This document shows positions 1,287 through 48,231 of a stretch of DNA of 50,805 nucleotides, piece by piece. A program made the position numbers and the translations under genes. Source of the DNA: Candidatus Kaiserbacteria bacterium (GTDB lineage Bacteria > Patescibacteriota > Minisyncoccia > Phycocordibacterales > UBA2100); NCBI GenBank assembly GCA_019247335.1, contig JAFAPB010000070.1, forward strand, positions 1-50,805, given 5' to 3'. The notes under the pieces are model-generated. The model was not told where the DNA came from. It did no database searches and worked only from the letters and a program-made list of their open reading frames with translations. How positions within the stretch are numbered: the first letter of the stretch is position 1; each line of letters opens with the position of its first letter.

Positions 1287-1314
1287 GGAATTATCTGATT
1301 GGTATACTTGATGC

Positions 1315-1794
1315 ATGAATATACCTAAAAATACGATTTGTTTGTGGTACGAGAAGGATGCGCAAGCGGCAGCGGAGTTTTATGCGGCGACTTTCCCGGA
1401 TAGCAAGGTGGGAGATATTTTCCGCGCGCCCACCGATTTCCCGGGCGGCAAGGCAGGCGATGTGCTGACGGTCGAATTCACGGTGGTCGGGATCTCGTGC
1501 GTCGGTCTCAACGGCGGGTCGTTCTTCAAACAGAGCGAGGCGTTCTCTTTTATGATTGCGACCGAAGACCAGGCGGAGACCGACAAATACTGGGACGCGA
1601 TCGTCGGCAACGGCGGCAAAGAAAGTGATTGCGGCTGGTGCAAAGACAAATGGGGAGTCTCGTGGCAGATCACGCCCCGCACATTGCTGGAATCCCAGAA
1701 AGCGGGCGGCGACGAGGCGAAGCGCGCGTTCGAGGCGATGCTCACGATGAAGAAGATAGACGTCGCCGCTATTGATAAAGCGCGGAAGGGATAA
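1315..1794 (+). CDS. VOC/glyoxalase-superfamily protein, PhnB-like / '3-demethylubiquinone-9 3-methyltransferase' domain type
   Basis: 159 aa. Family-typical sequence: ...CLWYEKDAQAAAEFYAATFPDS...LTVEFTVVGISCVGLNGG...CGWCKDKWGVSWQI... A TGgTATACT box ends 6 nt before the ATG. Confidence 0.8.
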   Translation: MNIPKNTICLWYEKDAQAAAEFYAATFPDSKVGDIFRAPTDFPGGKAGDVLTVEFTVVGISCVGLNGGSFFKQSEAFSFMIATEDQAETDKYWDAIVGNGGKESDCGWCKDKWGVSWQITPRTLLESQKAGGDEAKRAFEAMLTMKKIDVAAIDKARKG

Positions 1795-1795
1795 T

Positions 1796-2227
1796 ATGGC
1801 CACGATAAATCCGTGGATCAATTTCAACGGCAATGCCGAAGAGGCGTTTACATTCTATAAATCGGTATTCGGCGGTGAATTTGGAGAACTCATCCGCATG
1901 AAGGATCTCAAATGGGACGGCTACCACGTGCAGGCAGAAGATGCCGAGAAAGTCTGGCGGATCACGTTGCCCATCGGCAAAAATATATTGATAGGCAACG
2001 ACGTGCCGACAATGCTCGGGCGAGTAAGCGAAGAGGAAAACAGATCAAAAATTGCGGTGAGCGCGGAAAGCCGTGAGGAAGCAGAGAGCCTCTTCAACGG
2101 CCTTTCCGTGGGCGCGACGGTGGAAATGCCCATGGCAGAGAGTCCATGGGGTACATGGTTCGCGATGTTTCGAGACAAATACGGCATCGAGTGGACGGTG
2201 GAATTTGACCCGAACACAAAGAAATAA
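1796..2227 (+). CDS. VOC/glyoxalase-superfamily protein (PhnB-like)
   Basis: The ATG at 1796 lies 1 nt after the upstream stop. Sequence MATINPWINFNGNAEEAFTFYKSVFGG...SPWGTWFAMFRDKYGIEWTV is typical of PhnB-like proteins. Confidence 0.8.
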   Translation: MATINPWINFNGNAEEAFTFYKSVFGGEFGELIRMKDLKWDGYHVQAEDAEKVWRITLPIGKNILIGNDVPTMLGRVSEEENRSKIAVSAESREEAESLFNGLSVGATVEMPMAESPWGTWFAMFRDKYGIEWTVEFDPNTKK

Positions 2228-2690: not shown

Positions 2691-3260
2691 ATGCAGAAAG
2701 GGGACGTTTTGACGTGCGAAAGTCAAAAAGAATTTGAGAAATGGCTTGCGAAGCATCATGCCACCTCGAAAGGCGTGTGGCTCCGATTCTTCAAAAAGCA
2801 TTCCGGCAAAAGGAGCTTCACGTATGGTGAGGCGCTCGACATAGCGCTCTGCTACGGCTGGATCGACAGTCTGGTGAATAAATACGATGCGGATTCCTAC
2901 ATTCAGAAGTTCTCTCCGCGCGGGCCTAAAAGCGTGTGGTCCAAGAGGAATCGAGAACACGTCGCACGCCTGATCAAGGCGAAGCGGATGAAGGCGGAAG
3001 GACTTGGGCAGGTAAAGGCTGCCAAAAAGGATGGTCGCTGGGACGGAGCTTATGACTCTCCGGCCAATATGAAAATACCGGCCGACTTTACGGCGGCGCT
3101 CCGCAAAGATAAAAAAGCGAAAGCGTTTTTCGACACGCTCAACCGCGCGAATCTCTATGCGATTGGCTGGCGTCTCCAGACGGCCAAAAAGCCCGAGACG
3201 AGAGCGAAGCGCATGGCCGCGATCCTCGCGCAATTAAAAGCGGGCAAGAAATTCCATTAG
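2691..3260 (+). CDS. YdeI/OmpD-associated family protein (DUF1801-related)
   Basis: 189 aa. Family-typical sequence: ...WLRFFKKHSGKRSFTYGEALDIALCYGWIDS...RANLYAIGWRLQTAKKPETRAKRMAAIL... Confidence 0.8.
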   Translation: MQKGDVLTCESQKEFEKWLAKHHATSKGVWLRFFKKHSGKRSFTYGEALDIALCYGWIDSLVNKYDADSYIQKFSPRGPKSVWSKRNREHVARLIKAKRMKAEGLGQVKAAKKDGRWDGAYDSPANMKIPADFTAALRKDKKAKAFFDTLNRANLYAIGWRLQTAKKPETRAKRMAAILAQLKAGKKFH

Positions 3261-3263
3261 AAT

Positions 3264-3665
3264 ATGATTATGGGAAAGAAAAGATCAGAGATCGTTCCCG
3301 GCGGCGTTGCGGAATATATCGCGAAGTGCCCCAAGGCGGTGCAGCCCACATTGAAGCAAATTCGCGCTGCCATCCGAGCGGCCGCCCCGAAAGCAACGGA
3401 GACAGTGAGCTACTTTCAATTTCCCGGCTATCACTATCCCGGTGAATACGCATACAACGGCATGGCCGCATGGTTTAGCTACAAAAAACCGTTCGTGCGG
3501 CTGCACATCTGGCCGGTAGTTATCAAGGCGCACAAAAAAGAACTCGCGATGTACAAGACCTCGGTCGGGGCGATCTATTTTCCCGAAGATAAGAAAATCC
3601 CGTCCGCGCTCATAAAAAAGCTCGTGAAAGAAAGCGTCAAGGTGACAAAAGCGAGCGCAAAATAA
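3264..3665 (+). CDS. DUF1801 (YdhG-like) domain protein
   Basis: 133 aa: ...VAEYIAKCPKAVQPTLKQIRAAIRAAAPKATETVSYFQFPGY... The second ATG at 3270 sits exactly 6 nt after a TAGAAT box and may be the real start. Confidence 0.75.
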   Translation: MIMGKKRSEIVPGGVAEYIAKCPKAVQPTLKQIRAAIRAAAPKATETVSYFQFPGYHYPGEYAYNGMAAWFSYKKPFVRLHIWPVVIKAHKKELAMYKTSVGAIYFPEDKKIPSALIKKLVKESVKVTKASAK

Positions 3666-4961: not shown

Positions 4962-5999
4962 TTATTTTTCTTCGACTACTTGCGCAAATATTTTTTCGTA
5001 GCCATCTGCCATCTGCGCAACGCTGAAGCGCGAGAGTACGTGCGTGCGACAAGCGGCGCGCGAGATCTCGCCGATGCGCTCGACCGCCTCGATCATCTCT
5101 TCTGTGTCCGAGACGACGAATCCGGTCGTGCCATCAATGATGAGTTCGGGGATCGAGCCCAGATTGATCGCAACGACGGGGCAGCCACACGCCATCGCTT
5201 CAATGATCGCGAGCCCGAAGGGCTCGCGCCAGGTCACCGGGTGGAGAAAGCAGCGGGCGCGGCTCATAAGCTCGTTGCGTTCTTCGTCACCGACCTCGCC
5301 GATGAGCCTGATCTTTTCGGAAAGGTGCGGCTCCACGTACTCTTTAAAATACGGACGATCCTGCGCGTCGACCTTGCCGGCCAGAATGAGCGGCATATCC
5401 AATTCCTGCGCGACCTGTATCGCGATATGCGTGCCTTTTTGCATCGAGATGCGCGCGACGAAGAGGAGATACTCTTCCGCTGTTTCATGGAAAGGCGAGC
5501 CTTCGAGCGGGAGGCCGTGATAGACAGTGCCGATGTGGTTGAGATCGCCGAATCCGTGCACCTGCGCCTTGGAGATCGAGACGATGTGCGGCTTCCGCAT
5601 CGCCTGAAAGAGTCGCTTGTTCACCGTATTGAATGCGCCGTGCATCGTCATGACGACCGGCGTCTCCGCGAGATTCGCCGCGGGCAAGCTCAAGGGCGCG
5701 AGATGGTCGTGGATTATGTCAAACTCCTTCTGCCTGCTATACGCCTCGCCGAGGTGGAGCAGCGTGTATTCATTGGAGCCGTAGAGATCGCGCACTTTTC
5801 CTTCGCGTAGTCCGCGTGGATACACAGATGAGAGCCGGGCGCTCGTCTGCGAATCGCCGGTCGCAAAAAGCGTGACCTCGTGGCCGCGACGGACGAGCTC
5901 GTCGGTGAGCGCGTGCACGACGCGCTCGGTCCCGCCGTACATCTTGGGCGGGACGCGCTCCACGATGGGCGCGAGTTGGGCAATACGGAGCGGGCGCAT
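4962..5999 (-). CDS. Glycosyltransferase family 4 (GT-B, group 1)
   Basis: 345 aa: MRPLRIAQLAPIVERVPPKMYGGTERVVHALTDELVRRGHEVTLFATGDS... and C-terminal EPFGLAIIEAMACGCPVVA. Confidence 0.85.
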   Translation of the reverse strand: MRPLRIAQLAPIVERVPPKMYGGTERVVHALTDELVRRGHEVTLFATGDSQTSARLSSVYPRGLREGKVRDLYGSNEYTLLHLGEAYSRQKEFDIIHDHLAPLSLPAANLAETPVVMTMHGAFNTVNKRLFQAMRKPHIVSISKAQVHGFGDLNHIGTVYHGLPLEGSPFHETAEEYLLFVARISMQKGTHIAIQVAQELDMPLILAGKVDAQDRPYFKEYVEPHLSEKIRLIGEVGDEERNELMSRARCFLHPVTWREPFGLAIIEAMACGCPVVAINLGSIPELIIDGTTGFVVSDTEEMIEAVERIGEISRAACRTHVLSRFSVAQMADGYEKIFAQVVEEK

Positions 6000-6173
6000 A
6001 GCGGCACAGTATGCGCCTCCTTTCTGAAGATTAGAGGAAGGCCGTAAAGTGGCATGAAATCTTCATTTTTGTTACTATCGCACCTACTCGCGCTTGTAGC
6101 TCCGGTGGATGATACATCTGCAAGAGTAGATACTAGTGCACAATAGAGTTACGTAGTACGGTAGTTTCGCGAC

Positions 6174-6248
6174 GCGCTTGTAGTTCAGTGGTAGAACGCT
6201 GTCCTGATAAGACAGAGGTCGTAGGTTCGATTCCTACCAGGCGCACCA
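6174..6248 (+). tRNA. tRNA-Ile (anticodon GAU), CCA encoded
   Basis: Manual cloverleaf: acceptor GCGCTTG/CAGGCGC, D stem GTTC/GAAC, anticodon stem CTGTC/GACAG with loop CTGATAA, T arm GTAGG-TTCGATT-CCTAC, then discriminator A and CCA. Confidence 0.9.
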
Positions 6249-6284
6249 TTTCCGTTTTTAGGTGAAGTCTGTCATCATTCCTCA

Positions 6285-7601
6285 ATGAACTACAGGGTCG
6301 TCGGCGGCAGGAAGCTCTCGGGTACGGTCGAGACCAACATCTCCAAGAACGCGGCGGTCGCGCTTCTCGCGGCGTCGCTTCTCAACCGTGGGAAAACTAT
6401 TTTGAAGAAAATGCCCCGCATCGAAGAGGTGAAGCGCCTCCTCGAGACCATGCAATCGATGGGTGTTGAGACAGAGTGGCAAGAGAACGGCGATATCCAT
6501 ATCACGCCTCCCGAGCGGCTCGATCTTTCCAATATCAATCGTGCCGCAGCCGAGCGCACGCGCTCGATCGCGCTTTTCATCGCACCTCTCGCACACCTCA
6601 TCGACTCATTTGAATTGCCCGCGCCCAAGGGCTGCAATCTGGGGAAGCGAAGCCTCGGCTCGCATATCGACGCGCTCGCGCGCCTCGGCATAAAGATTGA
6701 GGGCAACGAAGAGGCGCATACGTATCACGTAGAGACCGACATCTCCAAAGGCGCGGCGCGCTCGACCGAGGTCATCATGTACGAAGCCTCCGACACCGGC
6801 GTCGAGAACGTGCTCATGGCGGCGGCGAAGATCCCGGGGCTAACGACGATCAAATTCGCCTCAGCCAATTACATGGTGCAGGACCTGTGCGTCTTTCTGC
6901 AGGCATGCGGCGTGCAGATCGACGGCATCGGCACCTCGACGCTCATCGTGCATGGCGTGAAAGATATCAATATCGAAGTCATCGGCTACGCATCGGAGGA
7001 TCCTATCGAATCAATGTTTTTCATTTCGCTCGCCGCGACGACGCAATCCGAGATCTCGATCTCGCGCTGCCCGTACGATTTCATTGAGCTCGAGCTCTTT
7101 ACGCTCGGACACATGGGGCTTGATTACAGCGCATCCGAGCCGTACCGCGCGGAGAACGGTCACACCATCCTGCGCGACATCATTTTGAAGCCCTCAGAGC
7201 TGCGCTCCGCGCCGGAAAAAATTTCGCCGCGTCCGTATCCGGGCATCAACATCGACAACCTGCCGTTTTTTGTGCCGGTCGCCACGCAGGCGAAGGGGAC
7301 GACGCTTATCCACGACTGGGTCTACGACGGTCGCGCACATTGGTATCTCGAAATGAACCATCTGGGCGCGAATGTCGACTTGCTTGATCAGCATCGCGTC
7401 GCGATCAAAGGACCGACGCCGCTTTTTGCGTGCGATATTACGGCACCGCCCGCGCTGCGCCCGGCGACTCTGCTGCTTATCGGCATGATGGCTGCGGAAG
7501 GGGAATCCACGCTTTTTGATGTGTATCCCATCAACCGCGGATACGAGAATTTGCACGAGCGACTCTCCAAACTCGGCGCCTCCGTCGAGGCCGTGGAATA
7601 G
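6285..7601 (+). CDS. murA: UDP-N-acetylglucosamine 1-carboxyvinyltransferase
   Basis: 438 aa with an EPSP-synthase-fold signature: G..LSGTVETNISKNAAVALLAASLL...; a Cys-containing loop PKGCNLGKRSLGSHIDAL; C-terminal DRGYENLHERLSKLGA. Confidence 0.85.
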   Translation: MNYRVVGGRKLSGTVETNISKNAAVALLAASLLNRGKTILKKMPRIEEVKRLLETMQSMGVETEWQENGDIHITPPERLDLSNINRAAAERTRSIALFIAPLAHLIDSFELPAPKGCNLGKRSLGSHIDALARLGIKIEGNEEAHTYHVETDISKGAARSTEVIMYEASDTGVENVLMAAAKIPGLTTIKFASANYMVQDLCVFLQACGVQIDGIGTSTLIVHGVKDINIEVIGYASEDPIESMFFISLAATTQSEISISRCPYDFIELELFTLGHMGLDYSASEPYRAENGHTILRDIILKPSELRSAPEKISPRPYPGINIDNLPFFVPVATQAKGTTLIHDWVYDGRAHWYLEMNHLGANVDLLDQHRVAIKGPTPLFACDITAPPALRPATLLLIGMMAAEGESTLFDVYPINRGYENLHERLSKLGASVEAVE

Positions 7602-7937: not shown

Positions 7938-7962
7938 ATTGCTCGCATATACAATTGCCGCG

Positions 7963-8589
7963 ATGGAGCCGAAGGAGATCATTGATATTTCAATGCCGCT
8001 TCGCGAGGGCATGCCGACGTACCCCGGTACGATCGCGCTTACGATCGAAACGAAAAAAAGTGCAACGACCGGCTCGCAAATGTCAGAAATTTCTATTGGC
8101 TCGCACGCGGGCACGCATATTGATGCGCCGCTGCACGCATTTCCGAATGGCGCATCGATCGATTCGATCCCGCTGCTTTCATTCATCGGTGTCTGCCGAG
8201 TCGTCGATTGCACTGCGAGCGTTGGAAGCGTAAGCAAAACGGATCTCGAAGCAAAAGATATTCAAGAAGGCGAGCGAATCCTGATAAAGACCAGCAATTC
8301 GATCCGCGGATTCAGTGAATTCTATCCCGATTTCGTATTTGTCTCATCAGAGGCGTCGCAGTACCTCGCAGAAAAAGGTGTCGTGCTCGTTGGCATCGAT
8401 TCGCTCTCGATCAAACAGAAAGGCTCGCCAGATAATACGCCGCATACGCATTTGCTTGAGAAACAAATTCCCATCCTTGAAGGAATCGATCTTTCTAAAG
8501 CAGAGGAAGGCGAGTATACATTGATCGCATTCCCGCTCGCGTACATCGGTATCGATGGTGCGCCAGCACGCGCGGTGCTTCTGCGCTGA
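7963..8589 (+). CDS. Cyclase-family protein (kynurenine/aryl-formamidase-like)
   Basis: The HxGTHxDxPxH motif is present as GSHAGTHIDAPLH. I set the start at ATG 7963, which is 7 nt after TACAAT and downstream of the csp terminator. Confidence 0.75.
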   Translation: MEPKEIIDISMPLREGMPTYPGTIALTIETKKSATTGSQMSEISIGSHAGTHIDAPLHAFPNGASIDSIPLLSFIGVCRVVDCTASVGSVSKTDLEAKDIQEGERILIKTSNSIRGFSEFYPDFVFVSSEASQYLAEKGVVLVGIDSLSIKQKGSPDNTPHTHLLEKQIPILEGIDLSKAEEGEYTLIAFPLAYIGIDGAPARAVLLR

Positions 8590-9247: not shown

Positions 9248-9315
9248 TCTCAACTAGAATGCGCGCACCGGGCATGCGTCGGAATTGGCCTGAACGATGA
9301 CGTTCAAATTATTGT

Positions 9316-9397
9316 GGGCGTGTGGCGGAATTGGTATACGCGTACGTCTCAGAAGCGTATCCCGCAAGGGTTGGGAGTTCGAGTCTCCCCACGCCCA
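9316..9397 (+). tRNA. tRNA-Leu (anticodon CAG), type II with long variable arm, no encoded CCA
   Basis: Acceptor GGGCGTG/CACGCCC, 3-bp D stem GCG/CGC, anticodon stem TACGT/GCGTA with loop CTCAGAA, variable arm TCCCGCAAGGGTT, T arm GGGAG-TTCGAGT-CTCCC. Confidence 0.9.
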
Positions 9398-9471: not shown

Positions 9472-9493
9472 CTGTTTGAGCGATAATACACAT

Positions 9494-10546
9494 ATGATCA
9501 AGAGAGAGGTTTCGCTCGTCCTTGCCGCATCGGTACTCTTCGCGATGCTTATTGTCTGCGTCGCGCTCATCTCGTCGGCATTTCGCGATCTCTCTGCAGA
9601 ATCCGCTGCACCGCCCGAAGCCGGAACAGTCGCGGTCTATTTGAACAATCAGGAATACGCGCGCGAGAGCGACACGCTCGCGCGGCTCGTCAACGATCAG
9701 GGCGCTACGGCGGCGCTCGAGCGGCTTAAAAAGGACATGAGCGATCCGAAAGTTGCTGCATCGTGCCATTCGCTCGCGCACGGCATCGGTCACGCGGCGT
9801 TCGAGAAGTACAAAGATTTCGGTACCGCGATGCAGTATCAGGACGACGTCTGCGGCGCCGGCTATTTGCATGGTGTGATCGAGCGGGTCTTTAAGAGTTC
9901 GACCGATATCGACAGAGACATGGATACGATCTGCAAGCCGTATACGTCGGAAGTATTTCTGCAGAAGTGCTACCACGGCGTCGGCCACGGTCTTATGTAT
10001 TACACCGACAACGACGTGACTAAGTCGATCAGCATGTGTGGGGAATATAAGAGCAATGAATTCAAGATCGCGTGTTCAGAAGGCGTATTTATGGAAAATT
10101 TCGGCACCGATGAGAATGATCACGAGTCTGCATTTTTGAATGCCGACAATCCGTCGTTTCCGTGTACCCAGCAAAATACTTTTTACAAAGGCAGCTGCTA
10201 TTTCTACGCGCCGATCTATTACTTGCGGCTGCACGAGAATAATTATCGATCCGCCTTGAACTGGTGCGCGACGATCGAGACGCCGTTCAAACTCCGCTGC
10301 ATGACCGGCGTCGGCAGCCGGATCATGAAACAATATCTCGATAATGCGCGGGTTCCCGAAAATATGTGCGTCCGCCAGGATCGCGCTGAAACGGCTGCAT
10401 GCATCGATGGCATGATGAGCTACTACCTTCTGCAGAATAATTCTGTCGATGCGGCACTCCGTATATGCGACGATTTCTCCGGCCCGAGCCACGACGATTG
10501 CGTCTCATCCGTCGAATCGCGCCGCGCGCTTTATGAAGATCAATAA
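9494..10546 (+). CDS. Membrane-anchored Cys/His-rich repeat protein, function unknown
   Basis: I set the start at ATG 9494, 6 nt after GATAAT, because the longer ORF would read through both tRNA sequences. There is an N-terminal TM helix followed by about 7 units of ~33-40 aa, each opening with Cys (CHSLAHGIGH, CGAGYLHGV, CYHGVGHGL, CSEGVFME, CYFYAPIY, CMTGVGSR, CIDGMMSY). Confidence 0.65.
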   Translation: MIKREVSLVLAASVLFAMLIVCVALISSAFRDLSAESAAPPEAGTVAVYLNNQEYARESDTLARLVNDQGATAALERLKKDMSDPKVAASCHSLAHGIGHAAFEKYKDFGTAMQYQDDVCGAGYLHGVIERVFKSSTDIDRDMDTICKPYTSEVFLQKCYHGVGHGLMYYTDNDVTKSISMCGEYKSNEFKIACSEGVFMENFGTDENDHESAFLNADNPSFPCTQQNTFYKGSCYFYAPIYYLRLHENNYRSALNWCATIETPFKLRCMTGVGSRIMKQYLDNARVPENMCVRQDRAETAACIDGMMSYYLLQNNSVDAALRICDDFSGPSHDDCVSSVESRRALYEDQ

Positions 10547-10586
10547 AGATTGTACTGGGCAATAAACCTGCTATCCTCACGGGCAC

Positions 10587-11297
10587 ATGGACTTGAAGGG
10601 GTCATCGGCGGTGATAACGGGCGGAGCACGCGGGCTCGGTGCCTCGCTCGCGCGTGAGCTTGTCGAGAACGGTGGCAATGTGCTCATTTCGGACATCGAC
10701 GGGGGTGATCTGCGCTCGCTCGCCAAAGAGCTCGATATGCCGTCGTTGCACTGCAACGTGACGGATCGCGAGCAGGTGGAGGCGCTCGGTCGCTACGCGA
10801 TGGAGCGCTTCGGCCAGATCGATCTCTGGATCAACAACGCGGGCATCTGGATGCCGTACATGCCCGCGCTCGAGATCGATTTCAATAAGGCGCGTCAGCT
10901 GATCGACGTGAATTATTTCGGCACCGCCTACGGTATGCTCGAAGCGGTAAAGCATATGCAGCCGCGCGGTGCGGGCACTATTTTAAATATCCTCTCGGTG
11001 CGCTCCTTGAAAGGCAAAGCGCTCGGCGCGGCATACTCGGCAAGCAAATTCGCAGCCGAAGGATTCACGCAAGCGGTGCGCGACGAGCTCAAGGATACGG
11101 GCATTTCCGTCCTCGGCGTCTATCCGTATCGCATGAAGACGGGACTCTTCGGCGAGCACAAGCACAAGGATTACGCGCAGTCGATGGAGCCGGACGATGT
11201 CGCGAAAATAATCACCGACAATCTCATCCATCAGCGCCCCGCAGAGCACCTCGAGATCTGGAGCGCGACCGACGTACGCAAGTCATACATCGTATGA
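10587..11297 (+). CDS. Short-chain dehydrogenase/reductase (SDR) family oxidoreductase
   Basis: TGGARGLG cofactor motif, NNAG, and the catalytic YSASK motif. Confidence 0.9.
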   Translation: MDLKGSSAVITGGARGLGASLARELVENGGNVLISDIDGGDLRSLAKELDMPSLHCNVTDREQVEALGRYAMERFGQIDLWINNAGIWMPYMPALEIDFNKARQLIDVNYFGTAYGMLEAVKHMQPRGAGTILNILSVRSLKGKALGAAYSASKFAAEGFTQAVRDELKDTGISVLGVYPYRMKTGLFGEHKHKDYAQSMEPDDVAKIITDNLIHQRPAEHLEIWSATDVRKSYIV

Positions 11298-15143: not shown

Positions 15144-15147
15144 AAAA

Positions 15148-15345
15148 CGCGAAAACTCTGCCCGAAGCAGAGTTTTGACGACTATGTGTCTTACGACACG
15201 CTCTCCTGCTCGGGATAACGAATGTCGAAGACCGGACTCGTCCCCGGTTTCCCGAGGCATTACCGTTGCGGCACAGTGGGGGGATTGCACCCCAGCTTCC
15301 AATCCGCTTTTTTCTGACTTGCGGACCCGGCCCGAGGGCCGGCAA
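15148..15345 (-). promoter_or_regulatory. Cobalamin (B12) riboswitch with terminator expression platform
   Basis: The minus-strand RNA contains GGAAGCUGGGGUGCAAUCCCCCCACUGUGCCGCAACGGUAA, which matches the conserved aptamer core pattern GGGAA..GGUG.AA.CC...CCGCAAC.GUAA. Downstream are GGGAAACCGGGG, GAGUCCGG (B12-box-like), and the terminator AAAACUCUGC-UUCG-GGCAGAGUUUU-CGCGUUUU immediately before the ATG. Confidence 0.7.
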
Positions 15346-15360
15346 CAATCGTGAAAGTCG

Positions 15361-15388
15361 ATTGTACGCCGGCTGCTTTTCCATGCAA
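15361..15388 (-). promoter_or_regulatory. Putative promoter of the riboswitch operon (TTGCAT-16 nt-TACAAT on the minus strand)
   Basis: The hexamers were read on the reverse complement (plus-strand ATGCAA 15383..15388 and ATTGTA 15361..15366). Confidence 0.5.
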
Positions 15389-30637: not shown

Positions 30638-30666
30638 AATCGGAGCAACGGATCGAGGAGGTCCGC

Positions 30667-34967: not shown

Positions 34968-34975
34968 TCGCGCCC

Positions 34976-35863: not shown

Positions 35864-35878
35864 CGGTACAATGCCCGC

Positions 35879-37530: not shown

Positions 37531-37532
37531 CT

Positions 37533-38633: not shown

Positions 38634-39761
38634 TGCTCGCGCTTTCGCGAAGCGTTCGAGATCGTCAAGAAAGTCGCGCGCGACGTTCGCGACATCGAAA
38701 ACGCGCGCGCGTTCGATCGCGGCGCGGGCGAGTGCCGCGTGCCGATCGCTCCCGAGCGCTTCTTTGATTTTTGCTGCAAGATCCGCCGCGTCGTTTTTCT
38801 TCATCGTGAGGCCGCCCTCGCCTGCGACCCAGGCCGAGCCGGTGTTTTCCGTGGCGATCACAGGGCAGCCACATGCCATCGCTTCCGCCACGGTGCGGCC
38901 GAAGGGCTCCGGCCACCGGACGGGTTGGAGAAAGACATTCGCGTGCGCATAGAACGAAAGCAATTCCGAGCCGCTTTTCCATCCGTGGAAATGCACGCGA
39001 CCGGGCATGTGCGCCGCTTTTTGCCGCAATGCGCTCTCTTCCGCGCCCGCTCCGACAATATGCGCGTGAATATCTTCAGGAACTTGTACGAGCGCGTCGA
39101 GAATGAGGTCCGCGCCCTTGCCGTGTTCGAGACGACCGACGTAGAGAATGTTGCGCAAACCTGATTCGTACGGATTCGGCAGCGCGGCGCTCGATCGCAG
39201 TATCGACGTCAGATCCATGAATTCCGGCGTGACGACCGAATCGTGCGTCTTGTAGCCCGCGCGTGCGTAGAGCGCCTGCAAGACCGGTGAGTCGAAATAC
39301 ATGCGGTCGATGCCGCGTGCTAAATAGAGCCCGAGCGTGTGTTCCCAGAGCCACCAGCGCGCGATATGGAGGCGGTTTTTGAGCACGTTGGTTTGCGTCT
39401 TGAAATAACCCATGCCGATCGTGAACGTGTTGATATAAGCAAGGACGAGCGCTCGGCGGTTTTTTCTGCCAAAGATGCCTGCGGCCCAGATCAGGGTCGG
39501 CGATGCGATCAGGTGTATATCGCTTTCACTATCTTTTGCCATGAGCCGTGCGACATGGAATTGCAGCGGCAGAAAGCCGCGCGTGAAAATCTCCTGCTCG
39601 AGCTTCATCGGCATATCGATCTCATCGCTGCCGGAGAGAAAGGTCGAAAGCGTCACGTCGTAGCCGCGCGCGAGCATCGCGCGGATCATCAGATCGAGCG
39701 TGCGGTGCGCGCCGCCGCCTGTTTTCGGCTTGAAGCGGAGCGCATAGATATGGATCTTCAT
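38628..39761 (-). CDS. Glycosyltransferase family 4
   Basis: ...EPFGRTVAEAMACGCPVIATENTGS... Its stop overlaps the convergent GT4 stop (TTATAG). Confidence 0.85.
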   Translation of the reverse strand: MKIHIYALRFKPKTGGGAHRTLDLMIRAMLARGYDVTLSTFLSGSDEIDMPMKLEQEIFTRGFLPLQFHVARLMAKDSESDIHLIASPTLIWAAGIFGRKNRRALVLAYINTFTIGMGYFKTQTNVLKNRLHIARWWLWEHTLGLYLARGIDRMYFDSPVLQALYARAGYKTHDSVVTPEFMDLTSILRSSAALPNPYESGLRNILYVGRLEHGKGADLILDALVQVPEDIHAHIVGAGAEESALRQKAAHMPGRVHFHGWKSGSELLSFYAHANVFLQPVRWPEPFGRTVAEAMACGCPVIATENTGSAWVAGEGGLTMKKNDAADLAAKIKEALGSDRHAALARAAIERARVFDVANVARDFLDDLERFAKARAL

Positions 39762-41275
39762 ACCGGGCGGACGGCGCGCACCACCGAGCGCGCAAGAAGC
39801 AGCAATGTATCATAGGGACCTTTTTTGAAGAGAATTCCTGCGAGCACGATAATGCCGGCGTAGATCAAGCCGGAGAGCGCGACGAGAAGGATGTACCCGC
39901 TCGTCGCGTTAAAGAACGGATGCGAAAGCAGCGAAAGCGCGAGCGGCACGGGCGCTGCGGAGGCGATCGCGACGACGAGCGCCGTCGAAAGAATGCGCCG
40001 CACGTTGATACCGACTTCCATAATGAGGTAGTAGCCCGTGACGCAGGTAGCGGAGAGGACCGCGGAGAGGAGGGCGTATGCGGCACCGCGTGCGCCGTAT
40101 GGCGGAATAAGCAGCACATACCCGGCGATCGCGACCACGGTGTACACGCTCGTCACGAGCGACTGTATCTTAGGCTTTCCGATTCCGTTGAAAACGGCCG
40201 TCGCGAGCGTGACGGCAAGCGCATTAAAGGTCGCCATGACGACGAGTATCTTCAGGTACGGCGCAAGCGCGATCCAGCCAGGGCCGAGTACGACGAGTAC
40301 GATGCGGGTCCCTGTGAGCCAGATCGCAACGATGTACGGAATCGAGACGAAGCTCAAGATATCGAATGTCTTGTTGATGCCCTCGATGATGTGCGGGCGC
40401 GAATCGCGCACATGGATGTAGGACGTAAAGCTGACCTTATTGATCGCGCTCACCATCGCGGAGGAGGGCGCCTGCGCGAGCGATTTTGCCTTGGTGAACA
40501 CGCCGAGCTCGGCAGCGGAGGCGAAACGGCCGATCAACGCGTCGCCCACGCTCCGCTCGATCTGCTGCAAGACGTCCTGCGCGTAGAGCCACTGCCCGAA
40601 GTGGCGCAGGTCGTCGAGCATGCGGAAGCGGAAATCGAATCGCGGCCGATACGAATGCAGAAAATAGGTCGAGAACGCCATGCACGCGGTCGAAAGAATG
40701 TTGCCGAGAAAAAGCGCCCAGTACGAGTGATAGATGAGCGCGAGCGCGATAGAGAATATCGCGTATGTCGCTTTCGTTATCGTGTCGCGCAGGAAGATCC
40801 GTCGGAAGTCGAAATGCAGGAAAAAATAATTCTGCCCGATGTTGACGAGTCCCTGCATAAGAACGACCGCACCGGCGAAGTAGAGCGCGGTCTGCGCCTC
40901 TTCGATCTTGAAGTAGCGCGCGAGAAACGGAGCGAGCGCGAGCGTGAGTACAAAGATCGAAACTACGCGCAGAATGTTGAAGGTCCAGAGCACATTCAGA
41001 TAGCGGCCCATCGCCTCCTTTTTTTGCAGCGCGCTCGTATCGAGATTGAAGGTCGTGATGCCGTCGATGAACGTCGGGACCAGCAAAATGAGTGACGCGA
41101 TGCCGAATTCTCGCGGCGGAAGGATGCGGGCGAGCGCGAGGAAGGTGCCGAGCACAAAAAGCTGCTGGACGATCGTATTGGTGAGCTGCCAGCGGCCCGC
41201 GGCGATCGAGAGATCGAGTATGCCGCGGCCTTCCAGCTCGTCGTTCATGACCGGCGCATCATCTGCGTTTCTCAT
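39758..41275 (-). CDS. wzx: Wzx-type oligosaccharide/polysaccharide flippase (MOP superfamily)
   Basis: 505 aa with ~12-14 predicted TM segments. Its position within a glycan locus and ATGA-type overlaps on both sides support the call. Confidence 0.75.
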   Translation of the reverse strand: MRNADDAPVMNDELEGRGILDLSIAAGRWQLTNTIVQQLFVLGTFLALARILPPREFGIASLILLVPTFIDGITTFNLDTSALQKKEAMGRYLNVLWTFNILRVVSIFVLTLALAPFLARYFKIEEAQTALYFAGAVVLMQGLVNIGQNYFFLHFDFRRIFLRDTITKATYAIFSIALALIYHSYWALFLGNILSTACMAFSTYFLHSYRPRFDFRFRMLDDLRHFGQWLYAQDVLQQIERSVGDALIGRFASAAELGVFTKAKSLAQAPSSAMVSAINKVSFTSYIHVRDSRPHIIEGINKTFDILSFVSIPYIVAIWLTGTRIVLVVLGPGWIALAPYLKILVVMATFNALAVTLATAVFNGIGKPKIQSLVTSVYTVVAIAGYVLLIPPYGARGAAYALLSAVLSATCVTGYYLIMEVGINVRRILSTALVVAIASAAPVPLALSLLSHPFFNATSGYILLVALSGLIYAGIIVLAGILFKKGPYDTLLLLARSVVRAVRPV

Positions 41276-42777
41276 GCGGTAAGGCCGATCTTCTCGGCGA
41301 GTTTGCGCGAGAGGGCGCGCATGCCGCTGTCTTCGTACGCTTCTTTAAATGGCGCGGAACGATTCCAGAGCGCGCTGAAATCAACGACGACGGAATCTTC
41401 CAAAAGCGCGCTCACGTAATCGACGAGCGTCGCTTCGTCATGCCGCCATTCGGTGAGCTGCTTTTTGACGAGGTAGGGGAATTCTTCAAAGTTGCGGCAG
41501 CGCTCGACGCCCGGCACGTCGTTGAAGAAGACCTCCCCGAAAGTAATGACAGGCTTTTTGAAGAGGATGCTCTCCCACGCGTTCGTGCTCGTGATCGTCA
41601 CCGTGAGGGAGGCCCCGCGCGCAAGATCAAGCCCCGAGACGCTTGGATCGATGAGGCGCACGTTCGGCACCTTGAGCATTTCTTTGTAGTAGCGGCGCGT
41701 GCGGAAGCCGACCATGCCCGGGTGCTCTTTCACATAGAGCAGCATGCCGACGGGAAGCGAGCGCGCCGTCGCGCGGATGAGCTCGAGCTGATTGGTGTAA
41801 TAGGGAGCGAGAAGCAGGGTCGCGATCTCGGGCTCGATGTGAAGAGGATAGTAGGCGAACGGCGTTTTCCAATCGACGGGCGAGAAGAGATCGCTGTAGC
41901 CGTAGAGGCCGCGCACTTTGCGCTTCAATTTATCCCACACCTCCCACCAGATGAAAATATCAGTGTAATCAGCTTGTTTGCGGCGCTTCCAATGATTGAA
42001 GAACGTGCGGATGTGCCATGGTATGCTCCACGCGAGATTTTTGAGCGAAAGAAATCGCAGATTCGCGCCGCGCCCGGTGCGCGAGTAGAAGCCCGGCACG
42101 GCGCTCTCATCGTAGTGCGCGGGCGCGGCGCGAAACGTCGCAAGGAATGTCTCCGCCTCGCTCTTCATCGGTGATGGGCGCCCGCCCCGGATCTCGTCGA
42201 AAAGCTTCTTCACCCAGGTGAACGTCATGTAATTTTCCGAGAACGCGATCCGGTTGCCGATGCGCGCGAATTCCGCGTGGATCGTTTTGATGCCCTTTTT
42301 CTTCGCGAGGTAATAGAGGAGCATGCTCGGTGTCGAACCGATGACCGAGGTTACCAGCACATCCGGCTTCTCCGTATCGAGGAACGCGTCGATCGCTTTG
42401 GCGCAGACCTGCAGTTTGCGCAGCATGTCTTCATAGGAGAGGAGCGCCTCGTCGTGCGGGTACTCGCGGCGCAACTGTCCGCTCATGATGACGCGGTCGA
42501 TATAGAGATACGGCCAGAGATTCGGAATGCCATATTTCTTTTCAAATTCGCGCAAATACTCGAGATCGACCTTTTCATTCCAGAGCGTGTTATGAATGTC
42601 CTCGTCGAGAAGCAGTCCCGTGTAGCGAATGTCGGTCTGCGACTTCAGAAATTCATAGCTCGGTCGCTGGCCGACGAACGCGCAAAACTCGGTTTCCGGC
42701 GCGATTTCCTTGAGGTGACACGCCATAGCGTGGCCGAGCGGTGTAAACCGGCGATGGAGGAAGATACACACCTTCAT
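41272..42777 (-). CDS. Capsule-polysaccharide-biosynthesis (KpsC/KpsS-like, Capsule_synth) family protein
   Basis: ...LLYVKEHPGMVGF...LTVTITSTNAWESILFKKPVITFGEVFF... resembles the KpsS/KpsC C-terminal pattern. Assigned from memory of family motifs. Confidence 0.5.
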   Translation of the reverse strand: MKVCIFLHRRFTPLGHAMACHLKEIAPETEFCAFVGQRPSYEFLKSQTDIRYTGLLLDEDIHNTLWNEKVDLEYLREFEKKYGIPNLWPYLYIDRVIMSGQLRREYPHDEALLSYEDMLRKLQVCAKAIDAFLDTEKPDVLVTSVIGSTPSMLLYYLAKKKGIKTIHAEFARIGNRIAFSENYMTFTWVKKLFDEIRGGRPSPMKSEAETFLATFRAAPAHYDESAVPGFYSRTGRGANLRFLSLKNLAWSIPWHIRTFFNHWKRRKQADYTDIFIWWEVWDKLKRKVRGLYGYSDLFSPVDWKTPFAYYPLHIEPEIATLLLAPYYTNQLELIRATARSLPVGMLLYVKEHPGMVGFRTRRYYKEMLKVPNVRLIDPSVSGLDLARGASLTVTITSTNAWESILFKKPVITFGEVFFNDVPGVERCRNFEEFPYLVKKQLTEWRHDEATLVDYVSALLEDSVVVDFSALWNRSAPFKEAYEDSGMRALSRKLAEKIGLTA

Positions 42778-42856
42778 CGCGTCATACTAGCGTAGCCGTG
42801 CGGCGGCGTAAATTGGCTCTGTACAAGCTTGGAGCGGTCGGGAGTATACTGGCGCC

Positions 42857-43402
42857 ATGAAAGCCGATGTACTCCTCACGGGCGAGCGGATCGACCTCCG
42901 GCCGCTTTCCATAGCGGAGATCGACGGCCCGTACCTTGGCTGGCTGAACGACAGCGAAGTGTGCCGCTATAACTCCCACGGCGAAGTCGAATATACGAAA
43001 GAAATGGCACGGGAGTACGTCGAACGCGTCACCGATTCTCCCGAATATCTCGTCCTCGCGATTCTGACGAAAGCGGGAAAACATATCGGCAATATTTCGC
43101 TGCAGGAGATCAATGCGCGCAATCGTGCCGCTGAATTTGCCATTCTGCTCGGTGATAAAGACTATTGGGGCAAAGGATTCGCCAAAGAGGCGTCGCTCCT
43201 TATCATCCGATACGGATTCGAGCGCCTCGATCTGCATCGCATCTATTGCGGTACCTCGATCGAAAACGCGGCGATGCAGAAGCTCGCGCATTCACTCGGC
43301 TTTCAGGAAGAAGGACGGCGACGCGAGGCGTTTTTCAAGCGCGGCGCATTCACCGACGTCGTCGAATACGGACTCCTTAAAAGCGAATTCCGCGCCGCAT
43401 AA
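42857..43402 (+). CDS. GNAT-family N-acetyltransferase (RimJ/RimL/PseH-like)
   Basis: ERIDLRPLSIAEIDGPYLGWLNDSEV...GNISLQEINARNRAAEFAILLGDKDYWGKGFAKEA... Confidence 0.85.
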   Translation: MKADVLLTGERIDLRPLSIAEIDGPYLGWLNDSEVCRYNSHGEVEYTKEMAREYVERVTDSPEYLVLAILTKAGKHIGNISLQEINARNRAAEFAILLGDKDYWGKGFAKEASLLIIRYGFERLDLHRIYCGTSIENAAMQKLAHSLGFQEEGRRREAFFKRGAFTDVVEYGLLKSEFRAA

Positions 43403-43422
43403 GGTGCGCGTATACTGCGTCT

Positions 43423-44628
43423 ATGACATCGGGGCCGCTTTTTCCGCACCTCACATACTGCACGCGCTGCTGCATTCCCGAGACGCAAGAAGGCGTCGCC
43501 TTTGACGAGCTCGGCATTTGCCGCGCGTGCCAATCTTCCGAGCAGAAGATCCACATCAACTGGGTCGAACGCGAGGCCGCGCTCCGCAAAATTCTCGACG
43601 ACGCGAAGTCGCGCGCGGGCAACAATTACGACTGCATCATCCCGATTTCCGGCGGGAAGGACAGCACGTATCAGCTGCATGTGCTGACGAAGATCTACGG
43701 CATGAAGCCGCTCGCGGTCACGTTCAGCCACAATTGGTGGTCGGAGAGCGGCTGGTACAACCTCCAGAACTCGCTCGAGACGTTCAACGTCGACCACATG
43801 GTCTTTACGCCGAATCGCGCGCTCATCAACCGGCTCGCAAAAAATTCGGTCGAGAAGATCGGCGACGTCAGCTGGCACGATCATGGCGGCGTGGGATCCT
43901 ACCCCTTGCAGGTCGCGGTGAAATTTAAGATTCCGCTCCTCATCTGGGGCGAATCGCTCGCGGAGAATTCCGGCCGCGCGTCATACCTCGATCCCGTGCA
44001 TAAATTCGACCGTGAGTATTTCATCAGGCAGTCCGCGAAAGTGACGGCGGGCGAGATGGCGTACGACGGCGTGACGGAACGCGACATGTTCCCGTTCACC
44101 GTGCCCTCGCAGGAAGAGATCGATGCGGCGAACGTGTGGGGTATTCACCTCGGCGATTATCTTTTCTGGGACGACGAGCGGCAGACCGAATTTTTGCGCG
44201 ACACGTACGGCTGGAAGGAGACGCAGATGGAGGGCACGTACAAGCGTTACAAGAGCGTCGAGGACGTGATGTCGGGCATGCACGATTTCACCTGCTATTT
44301 GAAGCGCGGCTATGGACGCGCGACCGAGCAGGCGAGTCTCGACGTGCGCAACGGACTCCTGACGCGCGACGAGGCGTTCGCGCTCATCGCCGAGCACGAT
44401 CCGGAAAAGCCGGAAGCGCTCGATTACTATCTCGCGATCACCGGGCAGAGCGAACAGGAATTCTATGCGACGATGGAGAAGATCCGCGTTCCCCAGATGC
44501 GCGGCATTGATATCCCCGTCAAAGAAAAGCATGCAAAAAATGAGGAACGCATCCTCCCGTTTCCGGAGCAGCTCATTCAGAAGTTCAACAAGACCGATTC
44601 GAAGCGTTCCTATTTGAATGATCTATGA
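43423..44628 (+). CDS. N-acetyl-sugar amidotransferase (PP-loop ATPase; WbpG/WbuX/PseA-like)
   Basis: N-terminal Zn-ribbon CTRCCIPETQ...GICRACQ, the PP-loop IIPISGGKDSTYQ, and 401 aa. Confidence 0.8.
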   Translation: MTSGPLFPHLTYCTRCCIPETQEGVAFDELGICRACQSSEQKIHINWVEREAALRKILDDAKSRAGNNYDCIIPISGGKDSTYQLHVLTKIYGMKPLAVTFSHNWWSESGWYNLQNSLETFNVDHMVFTPNRALINRLAKNSVEKIGDVSWHDHGGVGSYPLQVAVKFKIPLLIWGESLAENSGRASYLDPVHKFDREYFIRQSAKVTAGEMAYDGVTERDMFPFTVPSQEEIDAANVWGIHLGDYLFWDDERQTEFLRDTYGWKETQMEGTYKRYKSVEDVMSGMHDFTCYLKRGYGRATEQASLDVRNGLLTRDEAFALIAEHDPEKPEALDYYLAITGQSEQEFYATMEKIRVPQMRGIDIPVKEKHAKNEERILPFPEQLIQKFNKTDSKRSYLNDL

Positions 44629-45968: not shown

Positions 45969-46902
45969 CACATACACGGTCGGCATCGTGGGAGCGGGGC
46001 GCATGGGCTCGACCTTCGATGCGCCGGGTTCGCCACGCGTCCTCACGCACGCACACGCGTTTTCGAGAAATCCACGGACCCGGTTGATCGGGATCGCGGA
46101 TCTCGATGTGGCCAAGGCGGACCATGAAGCAAGAAAATGGGATACAAACGCGTACGGAGACTTTGCGCGGCTTCTCACGGCGAAGCCCGATATTGTCGTG
46201 ATCGCGACTCCGGATACGGAACATACCCGCATGATCAAAGAGGCCGCGAGCGTGGCGAAACTTATCATCTGCGAGAAGCCCGCTGCGGTGAATAATGCAG
46301 AAGCAGAAGCGTTGAAAGAGTACGAGGGCGCGCCCGTTGTCGTTAATTACCGGCGCCGCTTCGACGAGACGATGATCGCGCTTGCGCGAGAGATTGCCGC
46401 CGGCACGTACGGCACTGTCATCTCCGCATCAGCCATTTATTCCAAAGGACTTTTGCACAGCGGATCGCATATGATCGATCTCGCACGCATGCTCTTCGGC
46501 GAGATAACCAGTGCAAAGGCACTCGCCACGATCAACGATTGGGAAGGCGATGACACGATCGCAGGCTTCGCCGCATTCGAACGGTGCCCGCAGTTTTATC
46601 TCGAAACGGGCGACGAGCGCGCGTATTCCATCTTCGAAATTGATGTCAGGCTCGAGAAGCGCCGCATCAGACTGACGGATGAGGGCATCCGCATGAGCGT
46701 GCAGGAGATCGTGCCCGATCCCGTGTACGACGGCTTTGTCGTCTTGGGCGCTGAAGCAGTGACCGAGACGAAACTCTTGAGCGCAATGGAGAATCTCGCG
46801 CAGCATTCGGTCGATTTCCTCGACGGAAAGACGCCGCTCCGCTCGTCGCTCGCGGAAGCGCTCAAAACGTACGAGGCGTGCATGCGATTCCGTTTCGAGT
46901 AG
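45961..46902 (+). CDS. Gfo/Idh/MocA-family NAD(P)-dependent oxidoreductase
   Basis: VGIVGAGRMGS...VVIATPDTEHTRMI...ICEKP. Confidence 0.8.
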   Translation: MSDTYTVGIVGAGRMGSTFDAPGSPRVLTHAHAFSRNPRTRLIGIADLDVAKADHEARKWDTNAYGDFARLLTAKPDIVVIATPDTEHTRMIKEAASVAKLIICEKPAAVNNAEAEALKEYEGAPVVVNYRRRFDETMIALAREIAAGTYGTVISASAIYSKGLLHSGSHMIDLARMLFGEITSAKALATINDWEGDDTIAGFAAFERCPQFYLETGDERAYSIFEIDVRLEKRRIRLTDEGIRMSVQEIVPDPVYDGFVVLGAEAVTETKLLSAMENLAQHSVDFLDGKTPLRSSLAEALKTYEACMRFRFE

Positions 46903-46911
46903 AATTGCCCC

Positions 46912-48231
46912 ATGGCAAAGCTCGCGATAAACGGCGGTACTCCGGTCCGCGATCCGAAGGACCTTTTTCCCGCGTACAATCCGATCGGCAAGGAGGAAGA
47001 AGATGCGGCGGTACGTGTGATCCGTTCGGGCGCGCTCTCCAAATTCATCGGCGCATGGGACGAGAAAGACCCTGCATTTTTCGGCGGGCCCGAAGTGCGC
47101 GCGTTCGAGAGCGAGTGGGCGAAGAAATTCGGCGTGAAGCACGCCGTCTCGATGAACTCGGCGACCTCCGGGCTCGTCGCGGCGCTCGGCGCGATCGGGC
47201 TCGAGCCGGGCGATGAGGTCATCGTCACGCCGTATTCGATGTGCATTTCGGCGACCGCGCCGCTTTTTTACGGCGCCGTGCCGGTTTTTGCCGATGTGGA
47301 GCCTGAATATTTTTGCCTCGATCCGCAATCCGTCGAAGCCGCGGTGACCGAGCGCACCAAAGCGATCCTCGTCGTCGACCTCTTCGGTCAGTCGCACGAT
47401 GCCGATGCCATCAATGCGATCGCCAAAAAGCATAATCTGAAAGTCGTCGCGGATTCCGCGCAGATCCCGAGCGGTATGTACAAAGGCAGATACGCCGGCA
47501 CGCTCTCGGATATCGGCGTGTTTTCGCTCAATTTCCATAAACACATCCATACGGGCGAGGGCTCGGTCGTCGTGACGGACGACGATGCGCTCGCCGAGCG
47601 GCTGCAGCTCATCAGAAATCACGCAGAGGCCGTCGTCGAGGACAAGGGCGTCACGAATATCGTGAATATGGTCGGGCACAATTTCCGCTTTACGGAAGTC
47701 GCCGCCGCGATGGCGCGCGAGCAGCTGAAAAAACTCGACGGGCTCGTCGACGAGCGACTCAAGAACATCGCGTACATCAATGAGCGCTGCGCCGATATGC
47801 CGGGATTTCGTCCCGCAAACGCCCGGCCCGATACGAAGCACGTGTATTACATGCACGCTTTTTTGTACGACGAAGCGCAGACGGGCGTGCCGCGCGATAG
47901 GTTTTTCAAGGCGCTCATGGCGGAGCTCGCGCCCTCGAAGGGGCAGGAAGAAGAGGGGGTCCTCATGGGCCAGGGCTATGTGAAGCCCATCTACTGGCTT
48001 GCGATCTTCCAGCAGCAGATCGCGTTCGGCTCAAAAGGGTTTCCGTTCAAATCGGAATTTTACAAGGGCGTCGCACGCTATGAAAAAGGCATATGCCCGG
48101 TCGCTGAGCGGCTGCATGAGAAAGAAATGGTCACGCACGATATGATGCGGCCCGGCATGACAAAGAAAGATCTCGATGACGTTATTGGAGCGTTCCACAA
48201 GGTCTATGAGAACCGCGCGGAACTCGCGTAA
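46912..48231 (+). CDS. DegT/DnrJ/EryC1/StrS-family PLP-dependent sugar aminotransferase (PseC-like role)
   Basis: ...FESEWAKKFGVKHAVSMNSATSGL...SLNFHKHIHTGEGSVVVT... (Lys of the PLP site). ATG lies 6 nt after TAGAAT. Confidence 0.85.
   Translation: MAKLAINGGTPVRDPKDLFPAYNPIGKEEEDAAVRVIRSGALSKFIGAWDEKDPAFFGGPEVRAFESEWAKKFGVKHAVSMNSATSGLVAALGAIGLEPGDEVIVTPYSMCISATAPLFYGAVPVFADVEPEYFCLDPQSVEAAVTERTKAILVVDLFGQSHDADAINAIAKKHNLKVVADSAQIPSGMYKGRYAGTLSDIGVFSLNFHKHIHTGEGSVVVTDDDALAERLQLIRNHAEAVVEDKGVTNIVNMVGHNFRFTEVAAAMAREQLKKLDGLVDERLKNIAYINERCADMPGFRPANARPDTKHVYYMHAFLYDEAQTGVPRDRFFKALMAELAPSKGQEEEGVLMGQGYVKPIYWLAIFQQQIAFGSKGFPFKSEFYKGVARYEKGICPVAERLHEKEMVTHDMMRPGMTKKDLDDVIGAFHKVYENRAELA

Follow-up and report, generated by a model that had tools for sequence, protein, structure and literature searches.

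In its description of bacterial genome groups, the account of GeneMarkS-2 assigns to group C (examples being Mycobacterium tuberculosis, Streptomyces and Deinococcus deserti) a Pribnow box that precedes the starts of first operon genes by 6-8 nt and predicts leaderless transcription for 25-50% of operons; in D. deserti 167 of the 262 genes with mapped starts are leaderless, and this signature is also that of bacteria in which differential RNA sequencing confirmed leaderless transcripts (PMC6028130). Group B (Bacteroidota) is described there as carrying a motif unrelated to the Shine-Dalgarno (SD) sequence before all genes, internal ones included, on leadered mRNAs, and bacteria of the candidate phyla radiation (CPR) do not figure among the groups named in that description (PMC6028130). 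Loss of the anti-SD has itself been published for a subgroup of Parcubacteria: CCUCCU was found in only 48% of Parcubacteria 16S genes, the loss overlaps with lineages that lack uL1 (bS21 loss also being frequent), and the report mentions neither leaderless mRNAs nor how initiation works (Tsurumaki et al. 2022, RNA 28:1041, PMC9297842). Here we analyse 50,805 nt of DNA from Candidatus Kaiserbacteria bacterium (GCA_019247335.1, contig JAFAPB010000070.1, positions 1-50,805, forward strand; hereafter the window), in which TANNNT hexamers that resemble the -10 box of a promoter stand at a fixed short distance before ATG start codons, and in which the adjacent 16S rRNA lacks the anti-SD.

Organisms of group C that are rich in leaderless mRNAs keep the anti-SD, and the Bacteroidota retain it too. 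In mammalian mitochondria and haloarchaea most mRNAs are leaderless, and the mitochondrial small-subunit rRNA has no anti-SD; there, however, the archaeal TATA element lies at about -26, mitochondrial transcripts arise by the processing of polycistrons, and other initiation factors are at work. Set beside these systems, the window matches group C, as described, in its signature and in the fraction of genes that bear a box, but group C organisms use SD sites at leadered and internal genes (PMC6028130), whereas SD use in the window is near zero. It also differs from them in that the anti-SD is absent, internal genes sit on overlapping stop/start junctions and the promoters are mostly of the extended -10 type. 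With group B it shares little or no SD pairing in initiation, yet the motif here appears to be a promoter element, coupled internal genes are without it and the anti-SD is gone, which places the window outside that group. With the Parcubacteria subgroup it shares a clade-level feature, the loss of CCUCC(U), seen in the window and 16 relatives; beyond that report, which describes the loss and its overlap with lineages that lack uL1 (PMC9297842), the present data supply a candidate mode of initiation. Leaderless expression is a known mode met in a new lineage, unusual in its essentially absent SD use and apparently undescribed there; a search of the literature, not exhaustive, found no description of leaderless expression in CPR or of its link to anti-SD loss.

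Hexamers in phase with ATG start codons

The window has a G+C content of about 57% and some 50 callable protein genes. The initial annotation had listed 21 start codons with upstream hexamers, all of which are indeed present, and had described the hexamers as TANNNT-type. Most are; three as written there (CATACT at 5999, GATAAT at 9494 and TATACA at 32782) are not, and sites 5999 and 32782 do have a genuine TANNNT when read 6 nt from the ATG (TACTGT and TACAGT, respectively). Sites at 12560 (-), 6285, 28810 (-), 10587 and 49177 had been left out of the list.

Phasing was measured with a start rule blind to the motif, which takes the first ATG of each non-overlapped open reading frame (ORF) of at least 120 aa. 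Under this rule TANNNT lies at gap 6, that is, with 6 nt between hexamer and ATG, in 10 of the 44 window genes, as against about 0.8 per other offset (p = 6e-9), and at gaps 6-8 in 15 of the 44. The hexamer had been expected about once per 64 positions; we counted 593 copies in 101,610 positions, or about 1 in 171, and the enrichment is therefore stronger than had been assumed. At box-bearing starts the codon is ATG in 16/16 window hits and in 26/29 and 72/81 hits in relatives.

Such a pattern might arise artificially, by chance, through A+T-rich intergenic composition, from in-frame stops (TAA or TAG followed by T) or from starts picked to fit. The earlier reader had indeed selected among alternative starts, five of the gap-6 hexamers open with an in-frame TAG or TAA, and distant A+T-rich relatives show a 3-nt periodicity in their TANNNT counts. 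The motif-blind rule nevertheless keeps a sharp peak at gap 6 only, and the peak survives removal of hexamers with an in-frame stop (7/44 at gap 6, 0-1 at other offsets). When any candidate start is allowed, a box is found in 16/46 window genes, whereas the same selection at control offsets yields 3-7/46; internal in-frame ATGs have TANNNT at gap 6 in 1 of 245 cases, with no peak. Tests that use no gene calls are also significant. ATG follows TANNNT at gap 6 in 20 cases versus about 9 at other gaps, while GTG, TTG and CTG after TANNNT have no peak at gap 6 in the window; five of the 12 copies of TATACT on both strands have an ATG at a gap of exactly 6 (p = 8e-7); and the full 9-mer TGnTANNNT, taken at gaps 6-9, precedes an ATG opening an ORF of at least 60 aa in 11 of its 26 window occurrences. 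Finally, identically processed Firmicutes loci show no peak. Stop-codon phase and composition were rejected on the control offsets, the stop-excluded hexamers and the internal ATGs, and we give an artefact of any of these kinds next to no chance. The claim that phased placement exceeds chance is upheld by the motif-blind and gene-call-free tests alike; the motif and its phasing are directly established.

Relatives were gathered through the Mur-ligase gene at 19190, whose closest matches (66-75% identity) come from metagenome-assembled genomes labelled Candidatus Paceibacterota, Patescibacteria, Kaiserbacteria or Parcubacteria, and whose remoter matches are other Paceibacterota and then Firmicutes; these matches place the window in a CPR bacterium of the Parcubacteria/Paceibacterota group. 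About 45 Paceibacterota loci were used (5 close, 18 mid-distance and 22 more distant), with 32 Firmicutes loci from the same search serving as SD-using controls. By the motif-blind rule, a gap-6 box precedes 18/75 genes in the five close relatives; among 197 genes of the mid-distance loci, 27, 18 and 22 have a box at gaps 6, 7 and 8, and in the more distant loci 47/225 have one at gap 6. In the Firmicutes loci the count is 5/379, and the gene-call-free test agrees. The positional enrichment check that had been proposed for the genome, run on the window and its relatives, thus gives a sharp peak at gap 6 (6-8) and none in Firmicutes. Among orthologues of the window genes that bear a box, 50/98 have retained one at 6-8 nt compared with 20/98 at a control offset, and among orthologues of coupled genes 0/8 have one. 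Regions upstream of murC follow the same division, with TGnTAnnnT, 6-8 nt and ATG in many Paceibacterota and GGAGG in Firmicutes. Conservation of the motif across relatives is likewise directly established.

Individual sites are given here on the plus strand unless marked (-), with coordinates running from box to ATG. Extended boxes lie 6 nt before the ATGs at 1315 (TGgTATACT, 1300-1317; Pfam domain from residue 5), 19190 (the Mur ligase; TGaTACAGT, 19175-19192; a box at 6-8 nt kept in 13/33 orthologues), 20508 (TGaTAGCGT, 20493-20510; kept in 13/24 orthologues), 21220 (TGcTATCAT, 21205-21222, with a spacer of 16 nt to the upstream gene), 22290 (TGcTATACT, 22275-22292) and 25334 (TGcTATACT, 25319-25336; the orthologue in locus L004 has TATACT at 6 nt). 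The gap is 7 nt at 2691 (TGaTAGACT, 2675-2693) and 8 nt at 23670 (TGaTAAAAT, 23653-23672) and 12560 (-) (TGaTAGGAT, 12558-12577). Two weaker, near-leaderless cases have gaps of 9 nt, at 10587 (TGcTATCCT, 10569-10589; the L024 orthologue has TATAAT at 6 nt) and 49177 (TGgTAAGGT, 49159-49179).

Hexamers at 6 nt also precede the ATGs at 5999 (-) (TACTGT, or CATACT at 8 nt; 5997-6013), 9494 (GATAAT, 9482-9496, where a longer ORF from 9314 would overlap tRNA-Leu), 28931 (TAAGGT, 28919-28933; box in 8/13 orthologues and an Epimerase domain from residue 6), 32782 (TACAGT, 32770-32784; box in 6/6 orthologues), 35879 (TACAAT, 35867-35881) and 43423 (TATACT, 43411-43425). A 79-nt divergent spacer holds the back-to-back promoters of 42777 (-) (TAGTAT, 6 nt, 42775-42789) and 42857 (TATACT, 6 nt, 42845-42859; GNAT domain from residue 11). 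At 3270 (TAGAAT, 6 nt, 3258-3272) and 46912 (TAGAAT, 6 nt, 46900-46914) the TAG of the box is the stop codon of the upstream gene; for 3270, own promoter versus coupling is ambiguous, and the alternative start, ATG 3264 (+), lies 3 nt past that stop. Gaps of 7 nt are found at 7963 (TACAAT, 7950-7965; Cyclase domain from residue 7), 31191 (TATGAT, 31178-31193; GT4 domain from residue 15, box in 6/13 orthologues) and 34976 (TATAGT, 34963-34978), where the box abuts the upstream stop TAG. The MurA-like gene at 6285 has a probable box (TGtCATCAT, 6 nt, 6270-6287; TATAAT at 6 nt in the L003 orthologue), and the IS256-type transposase gene at 28810 (-) a weak candidate (CAAAAT, 6 nt, 28808-28822).

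Promoter features and protein N-termini

To characterise the hexamer, start-proximal boxes were aligned on it and read for features outside those by which they had been selected. The aligned boxes have T at -3 and G at -2 relative to the hexamer (G in 55-66%), which is the extended -10 element TGn. The initial annotation had noted that TGn often accompanies the hexamers, and it does so in 47% of the window start-proximal boxes compared with 3% of other TANNNT copies; for the window with its close relatives the figures are 39% and 3% (odds ratio 18, p = 4e-12), and the odds ratio ranges over 18-26 across the two sets. At starts, the complete 9-mer TGnTANNNT is confined to gaps 6-9. Positions -23/-22 are T-rich, corresponding to the TT(G) of a -35 element with a 17-bp spacer; this weak -35 TT occurs in 24% of boxes versus 7% (p = 8e-4). 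The interior of the box has the consensus TATA(C/A)T. These promoter features are observed directly, and the arrangement is that of a sigma-70 extended -10 promoter, with TG at -15/-14 and a weak or dispensable -35. Its sequence context marks the hexamer as an element of sigma-70 extended -10 promoters and not as a site of ribosome binding.

The TAnnnT block could instead be a non-SD translation signal on leadered mRNAs, as in Bacteroidota, acting as a site for the ribosome or S1 or by pairing with the altered 16S tail. Its distance of 6-8 nt is that of a ribosome-binding site, and the altered tail makes a new pairing conceivable. Pairing of the motif or of the upstream regions with the tail was tried and rejected, no 5-mer complementary to either tail type (GAAUGA.. 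or GGAUAUG..) being enriched before starts. The tails vary among sub-clades, moreover, while the motif stays constant as TAnnnT; TGn and the TT at -35 with its 17-bp spacer belong to promoters and play no part in ribosome binding; and the motif is missing at coupled internal genes, including all eight orthologues, where a general ribosome-binding site would be expected. We regard a translation signal as very improbable.

A distance of 6 nt is canonical between a -10 box and +1. At gap-6 sites the nucleotide just ahead of the ATG is a pyrimidine in 80% of cases versus 64% of other genes (p = 0.002), which fits the preference of RNA polymerase for Y(-1)R(+1) at the start site. Judged from the -10 distance and this pyrimidine at -1, transcription would begin at the A of the ATG.

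Protein sequences point to the same start codons. Pfam domains open 5-15 residues after the proposed ATGs, and these boundaries support the proposed N-termini; they are informative where the ORF runs further upstream, as at 32782, 7963, 31191 and 34976. ATG 32782 is internal to a 539-aa ORF, whose GT4 domain begins at residue 179-180, equivalent to residue 14-15 counted from 32782, as in the paralogue at 31191. The box at 22290 opens a 62-aa ORF with two transmembrane segments (22290-22478, +), which is shorter than usual ORF cut-offs and is conserved in four relatives. The gene after it starts at ATG 22484, 5 nt past its stop, and not at TTG 22364 of the longest ORF.

A further alternative keeps the promoters but lets transcription begin a few nucleotides off the A of the ATG, or sets the genuine start codon downstream, so that the mRNAs carry very short or cryptic leaders. 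Gaps do range over 6-9 nt, broadly so in the mid-distance relatives, and reach 9 at 10587 and 49177, while boxes 12-14 nt before 1176, 4936 and 14597 would give leaders of 5-7 nt. In the window and close relatives, however, the commonest gap is exactly the canonical 6 nt, transcription beginning at the A agrees with the enrichment confined to ATG and with the pyrimidine at -1, and the domain boundaries match the proposed ATGs. Leaders of 1-3 nt, furthermore, act as leaderless in studied systems. Short leaders as the general explanation therefore seem unlikely to us. At 1176, one of these sites, a short leader would apply rather than a leaderless transcript: an A+T-rich 153-aa ORF without a Pfam match (715-1176, -) lies directly after the 16S gene, with TAATAT 12 nt before its ATG.

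Genes without a box and initiation without an anti-SD

Positions 1-475 of the window encode the 3' portion of a bacterial 16S rRNA. Its 3' tail (462-475, +) reads GGAUUCAUUCAAAA, where the bacterial consensus is GGAUCACCUCCUUU, and an Rfam alignment confirms that the anti-SD CCUCC is missing, as had been noted from the letters; by inspection, helix 45 is intact. The same loss is common to all 16 of the related loci in which a 16S 3' end lies upstream of murC, with tails such as GGAUUCAUUC, GGAACAUAUCC, GGAUUAAUUCC and similar. The absence of CCUCC is a direct observation and fits leaderless expression. The arrangement in which the 16S 3' end lies some kilobases upstream of the Mur-ligase gene is repeated in these 16 loci (L003, L005, L007, L008, L010, L011 and others), and in the helix 34/35 region the window 16S diverges as well. 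In the offset profile of the window there is no SD peak, whereas the Firmicutes controls have one in 75/382 genes at gap 7.

A control for ribosomes with CCUCC came from a metagenome scan for TAGCGGAAGCT-N6-GGATCACCTCC, which returned 120 loci (L082-L201) of mixed, unlabelled taxa with small gene numbers. Loci of the 'GGTA-type', likely non-CPR, have an SD peak and no -10 peak. Those with a 'GGCA-type' helix 45, which have no 23S downstream and may belong to other CPR, combine a weak SD peak with a faint TANNNT bump at gaps 6-9 (for example 5/11 in L108 and 4/8 in L145, on few genes), a hint that leaderless use may extend to CPR-like lineages that retain the anti-SD.

In a curated gene table of the window, 22 genes have a clear box at 6-8 nt and four a weaker one (6285, 28810, 10587 and 49177), while 12 start between -8 and +5 nt from the upstream stop, six of them in ATGA overlaps. 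Transcripts had been called predominantly leaderless; in figures this amounts to about 60% of the genes uncoupled to an upstream stop and roughly 44-52% of all genes. Spacing between same-strand genes separates the two kinds of start. Spacers of up to 5 nt have no box and most of those of at least 6 nt have one, and at spacers of 6-16 nt the box overlaps the end or the stop codon of the upstream gene (TAGAAT at 3258 and 46900). Among same-strand pairs, ATGA overlaps account for 21-22% in the window and mid-distance relatives versus 5% in Firmicutes. In the window they fall at 11294-11297 (+), where there is no -10 box and coupling is presumed, 33903-33906 (+), 36907-36910 (+), 39758-39761 (-), 41272-41275 (-) and 44625-44628 (+). 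The position of box-less genes near upstream stops suggests translational coupling.

We propose that most transcription units would have sigma-70-type extended -10 promoters (TGnTAnnnT) with a weak -35, from which RNA polymerase would start at, or no more than 1-2 nt from, the A of the ATG. Messages made in this way would have neither a 5' untranslated region (UTR) nor an SD element, and their 5'-terminal AUG would be recognised directly by ribosomes, as in other leaderless systems. Genes at least 6 nt from the upstream gene would tend to have a box of their own, sometimes overlapping the upstream stop codon, and box-less genes at -8 to +5 nt would be reached by termination-reinitiation coupling. 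The mode of ribosome recruitment and the coupling are what we infer from this arrangement. Every sequence-level prediction of leaderless expression that could be tested holds, namely promoter features, spacing, ATG only, domains and conservation, and it is very probable that extended -10 promoters fire at the A of AUG to give leaderless mRNAs read directly by ribosomes without an anti-SD, with overlapping genes served via reinitiation.

Several observations weigh against this proposal. About a dozen genes, roughly a quarter, have neither a box nor a coupled start. At 3270, 12560, 34976 and 46912, with spacers of 6-9 nt, the box uses the TA of the upstream stop, and reinitiation could explain these starts equally well. 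Terminators would not fit into spacers of 9-40 nt, so that read-through polycistronic RNAs probably coexist with leaderless ones. A generic sigma-70 scan that demanded -35 and -10 together over 18000-37999 found 12 sites compared with 10.8 +/- 3.6 in shuffles, and it recovered two listed sites only; with no enrichment of the -35/-10 consensus, the promoter argument rests on the -10 and TGn. The relatives, furthermore, keep a small residual SD-like peak that would not be expected without an anti-SD: counts of such motifs (GGAGG, AGGAG, AAGGA) at gaps 4-10 are 15 versus 5, 29 versus 6 and 34 versus 17 (298 versus 20 in Firmicutes). Some leaders in the window also carry an SD-like GAGGAGG, at 30667, 29864 and the csp gene at 7671.

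Examples of residual SD-like motifs are found near 18658 in L005 and near 14682 in L024 (among relatives L002-L041), and at 30647-30669 in the window. Leadered-looking genes in the window comprise 29864, with TGtTATAAT 35 nt before it, 16978, with TATACT 30 nt before it, and csp at 7671. A 5'-UTR motif shared by 29864 and 30667 (AACGGAnCGAGGnGG) was considered and dropped, as its 4 matches with up to 2 mismatches are not significant against 1.9 expected; it has no matches in the fetched loci, and the copy at 29864 differs by an indel. An IS256/Mutator-family transposase gene (27704-28810, -) adjoins a stretch of lower G+C (0.51; 28000-30000), and 29864 and 30667, the genes with SD-like leaders, lie just downstream. 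The region of 29864 and 30667 may be recently acquired DNA.

Other features of the window and wider meaning

No 23S rRNA gene was found anywhere in the 50-kb window; with no 23S within 50 kb of the 16S, the two rRNA genes are unlinked. Ribosomal protein genes were likewise absent from the window and the fetched flanks. Upstream of tRNA-Ile, at 6174, lie TGtTACTAT (about 95 nt away) and TAGAGT (24 nt away; window 6070-6174). At tRNA-Leu, at 9316, TATTGT abuts the mature 5' end (window 9300-9316), with CAAATT 5 nt ahead of it.

The segment 28931-50805 is a 22-kb cluster that encodes GT4 glycosyltransferases, a flippase-like protein, a DegT-type aminotransferase, a Polysacc_synt_2 dehydratase and NeuB. 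It looks like a locus for surface polysaccharide and nonulosonic-acid synthesis, notable for a reduced CPR genome. Between a TraG/VirD4-like gene and the IS256-type transposase gene lies a non-coding stretch of about 270 nt (27320-27600, +), with an extended -10 (TGaTAGGAT, 27320-27328) ahead and a strong hairpin (27562-27590) at its end. It folds more stably than shuffles (z = -3.3), positions 27330-27600 matched no Rfam family and no homologue among the fetched loci, and it is a candidate small RNA or insertion-sequence end. At 14613-15407 (-) two calls in different frames compete: a 264-aa ORF, whose sole Pfam match is DUF4430 at the C-terminus, and a public 179-aa call at 14845-15384, with G6PD on the opposite strand overlapping the 5' end. 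The double call could reflect either a frameshift or a pair of genes.

The phased extended -10 boxes offer a testable answer, leaderless mRNAs and coupling, to the question of initiation left open by Tsurumaki et al. (2022). In practical terms, gene callers trained on SD sites will misplace starts here, as at 32782, 7963, 31191, 34976 and small genes such as 22290-22478, and the box at -12 to -7 offers a means of correcting starts and delimiting promoters in a lineage not yet in culture.

A broader claim would be that this clade of Paceibacterota has abandoned SD initiation, with nearly every non-overlapping gene under its own AUG-firing extended -10 promoter, which could lie even within the final codons or the stop codon of the gene ahead, and the rest relying on ATGA reinitiation. 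We put this forward tentatively, leaning slightly against it. If true, it would mean SD-free initiation in a free-standing bacterial lineage, comparable to mitochondria, and would explain the way in which CPR ribosomes without an anti-SD, which tend to be without uL1 and bS21 as well, locate start codons. In that case the faint -10 bump seen in anti-SD-bearing CPR-like loci would point to leaderless expression as the earlier step, one that relaxed selection on the anti-SD. The clade would be a bacterial case in which loss of SD and anti-SD accompanied a genome-wide reorganisation of promoters, and as such it bears on proposals that leaderless initiation is the ancestral mode, or that reduced ribosomes favour it.

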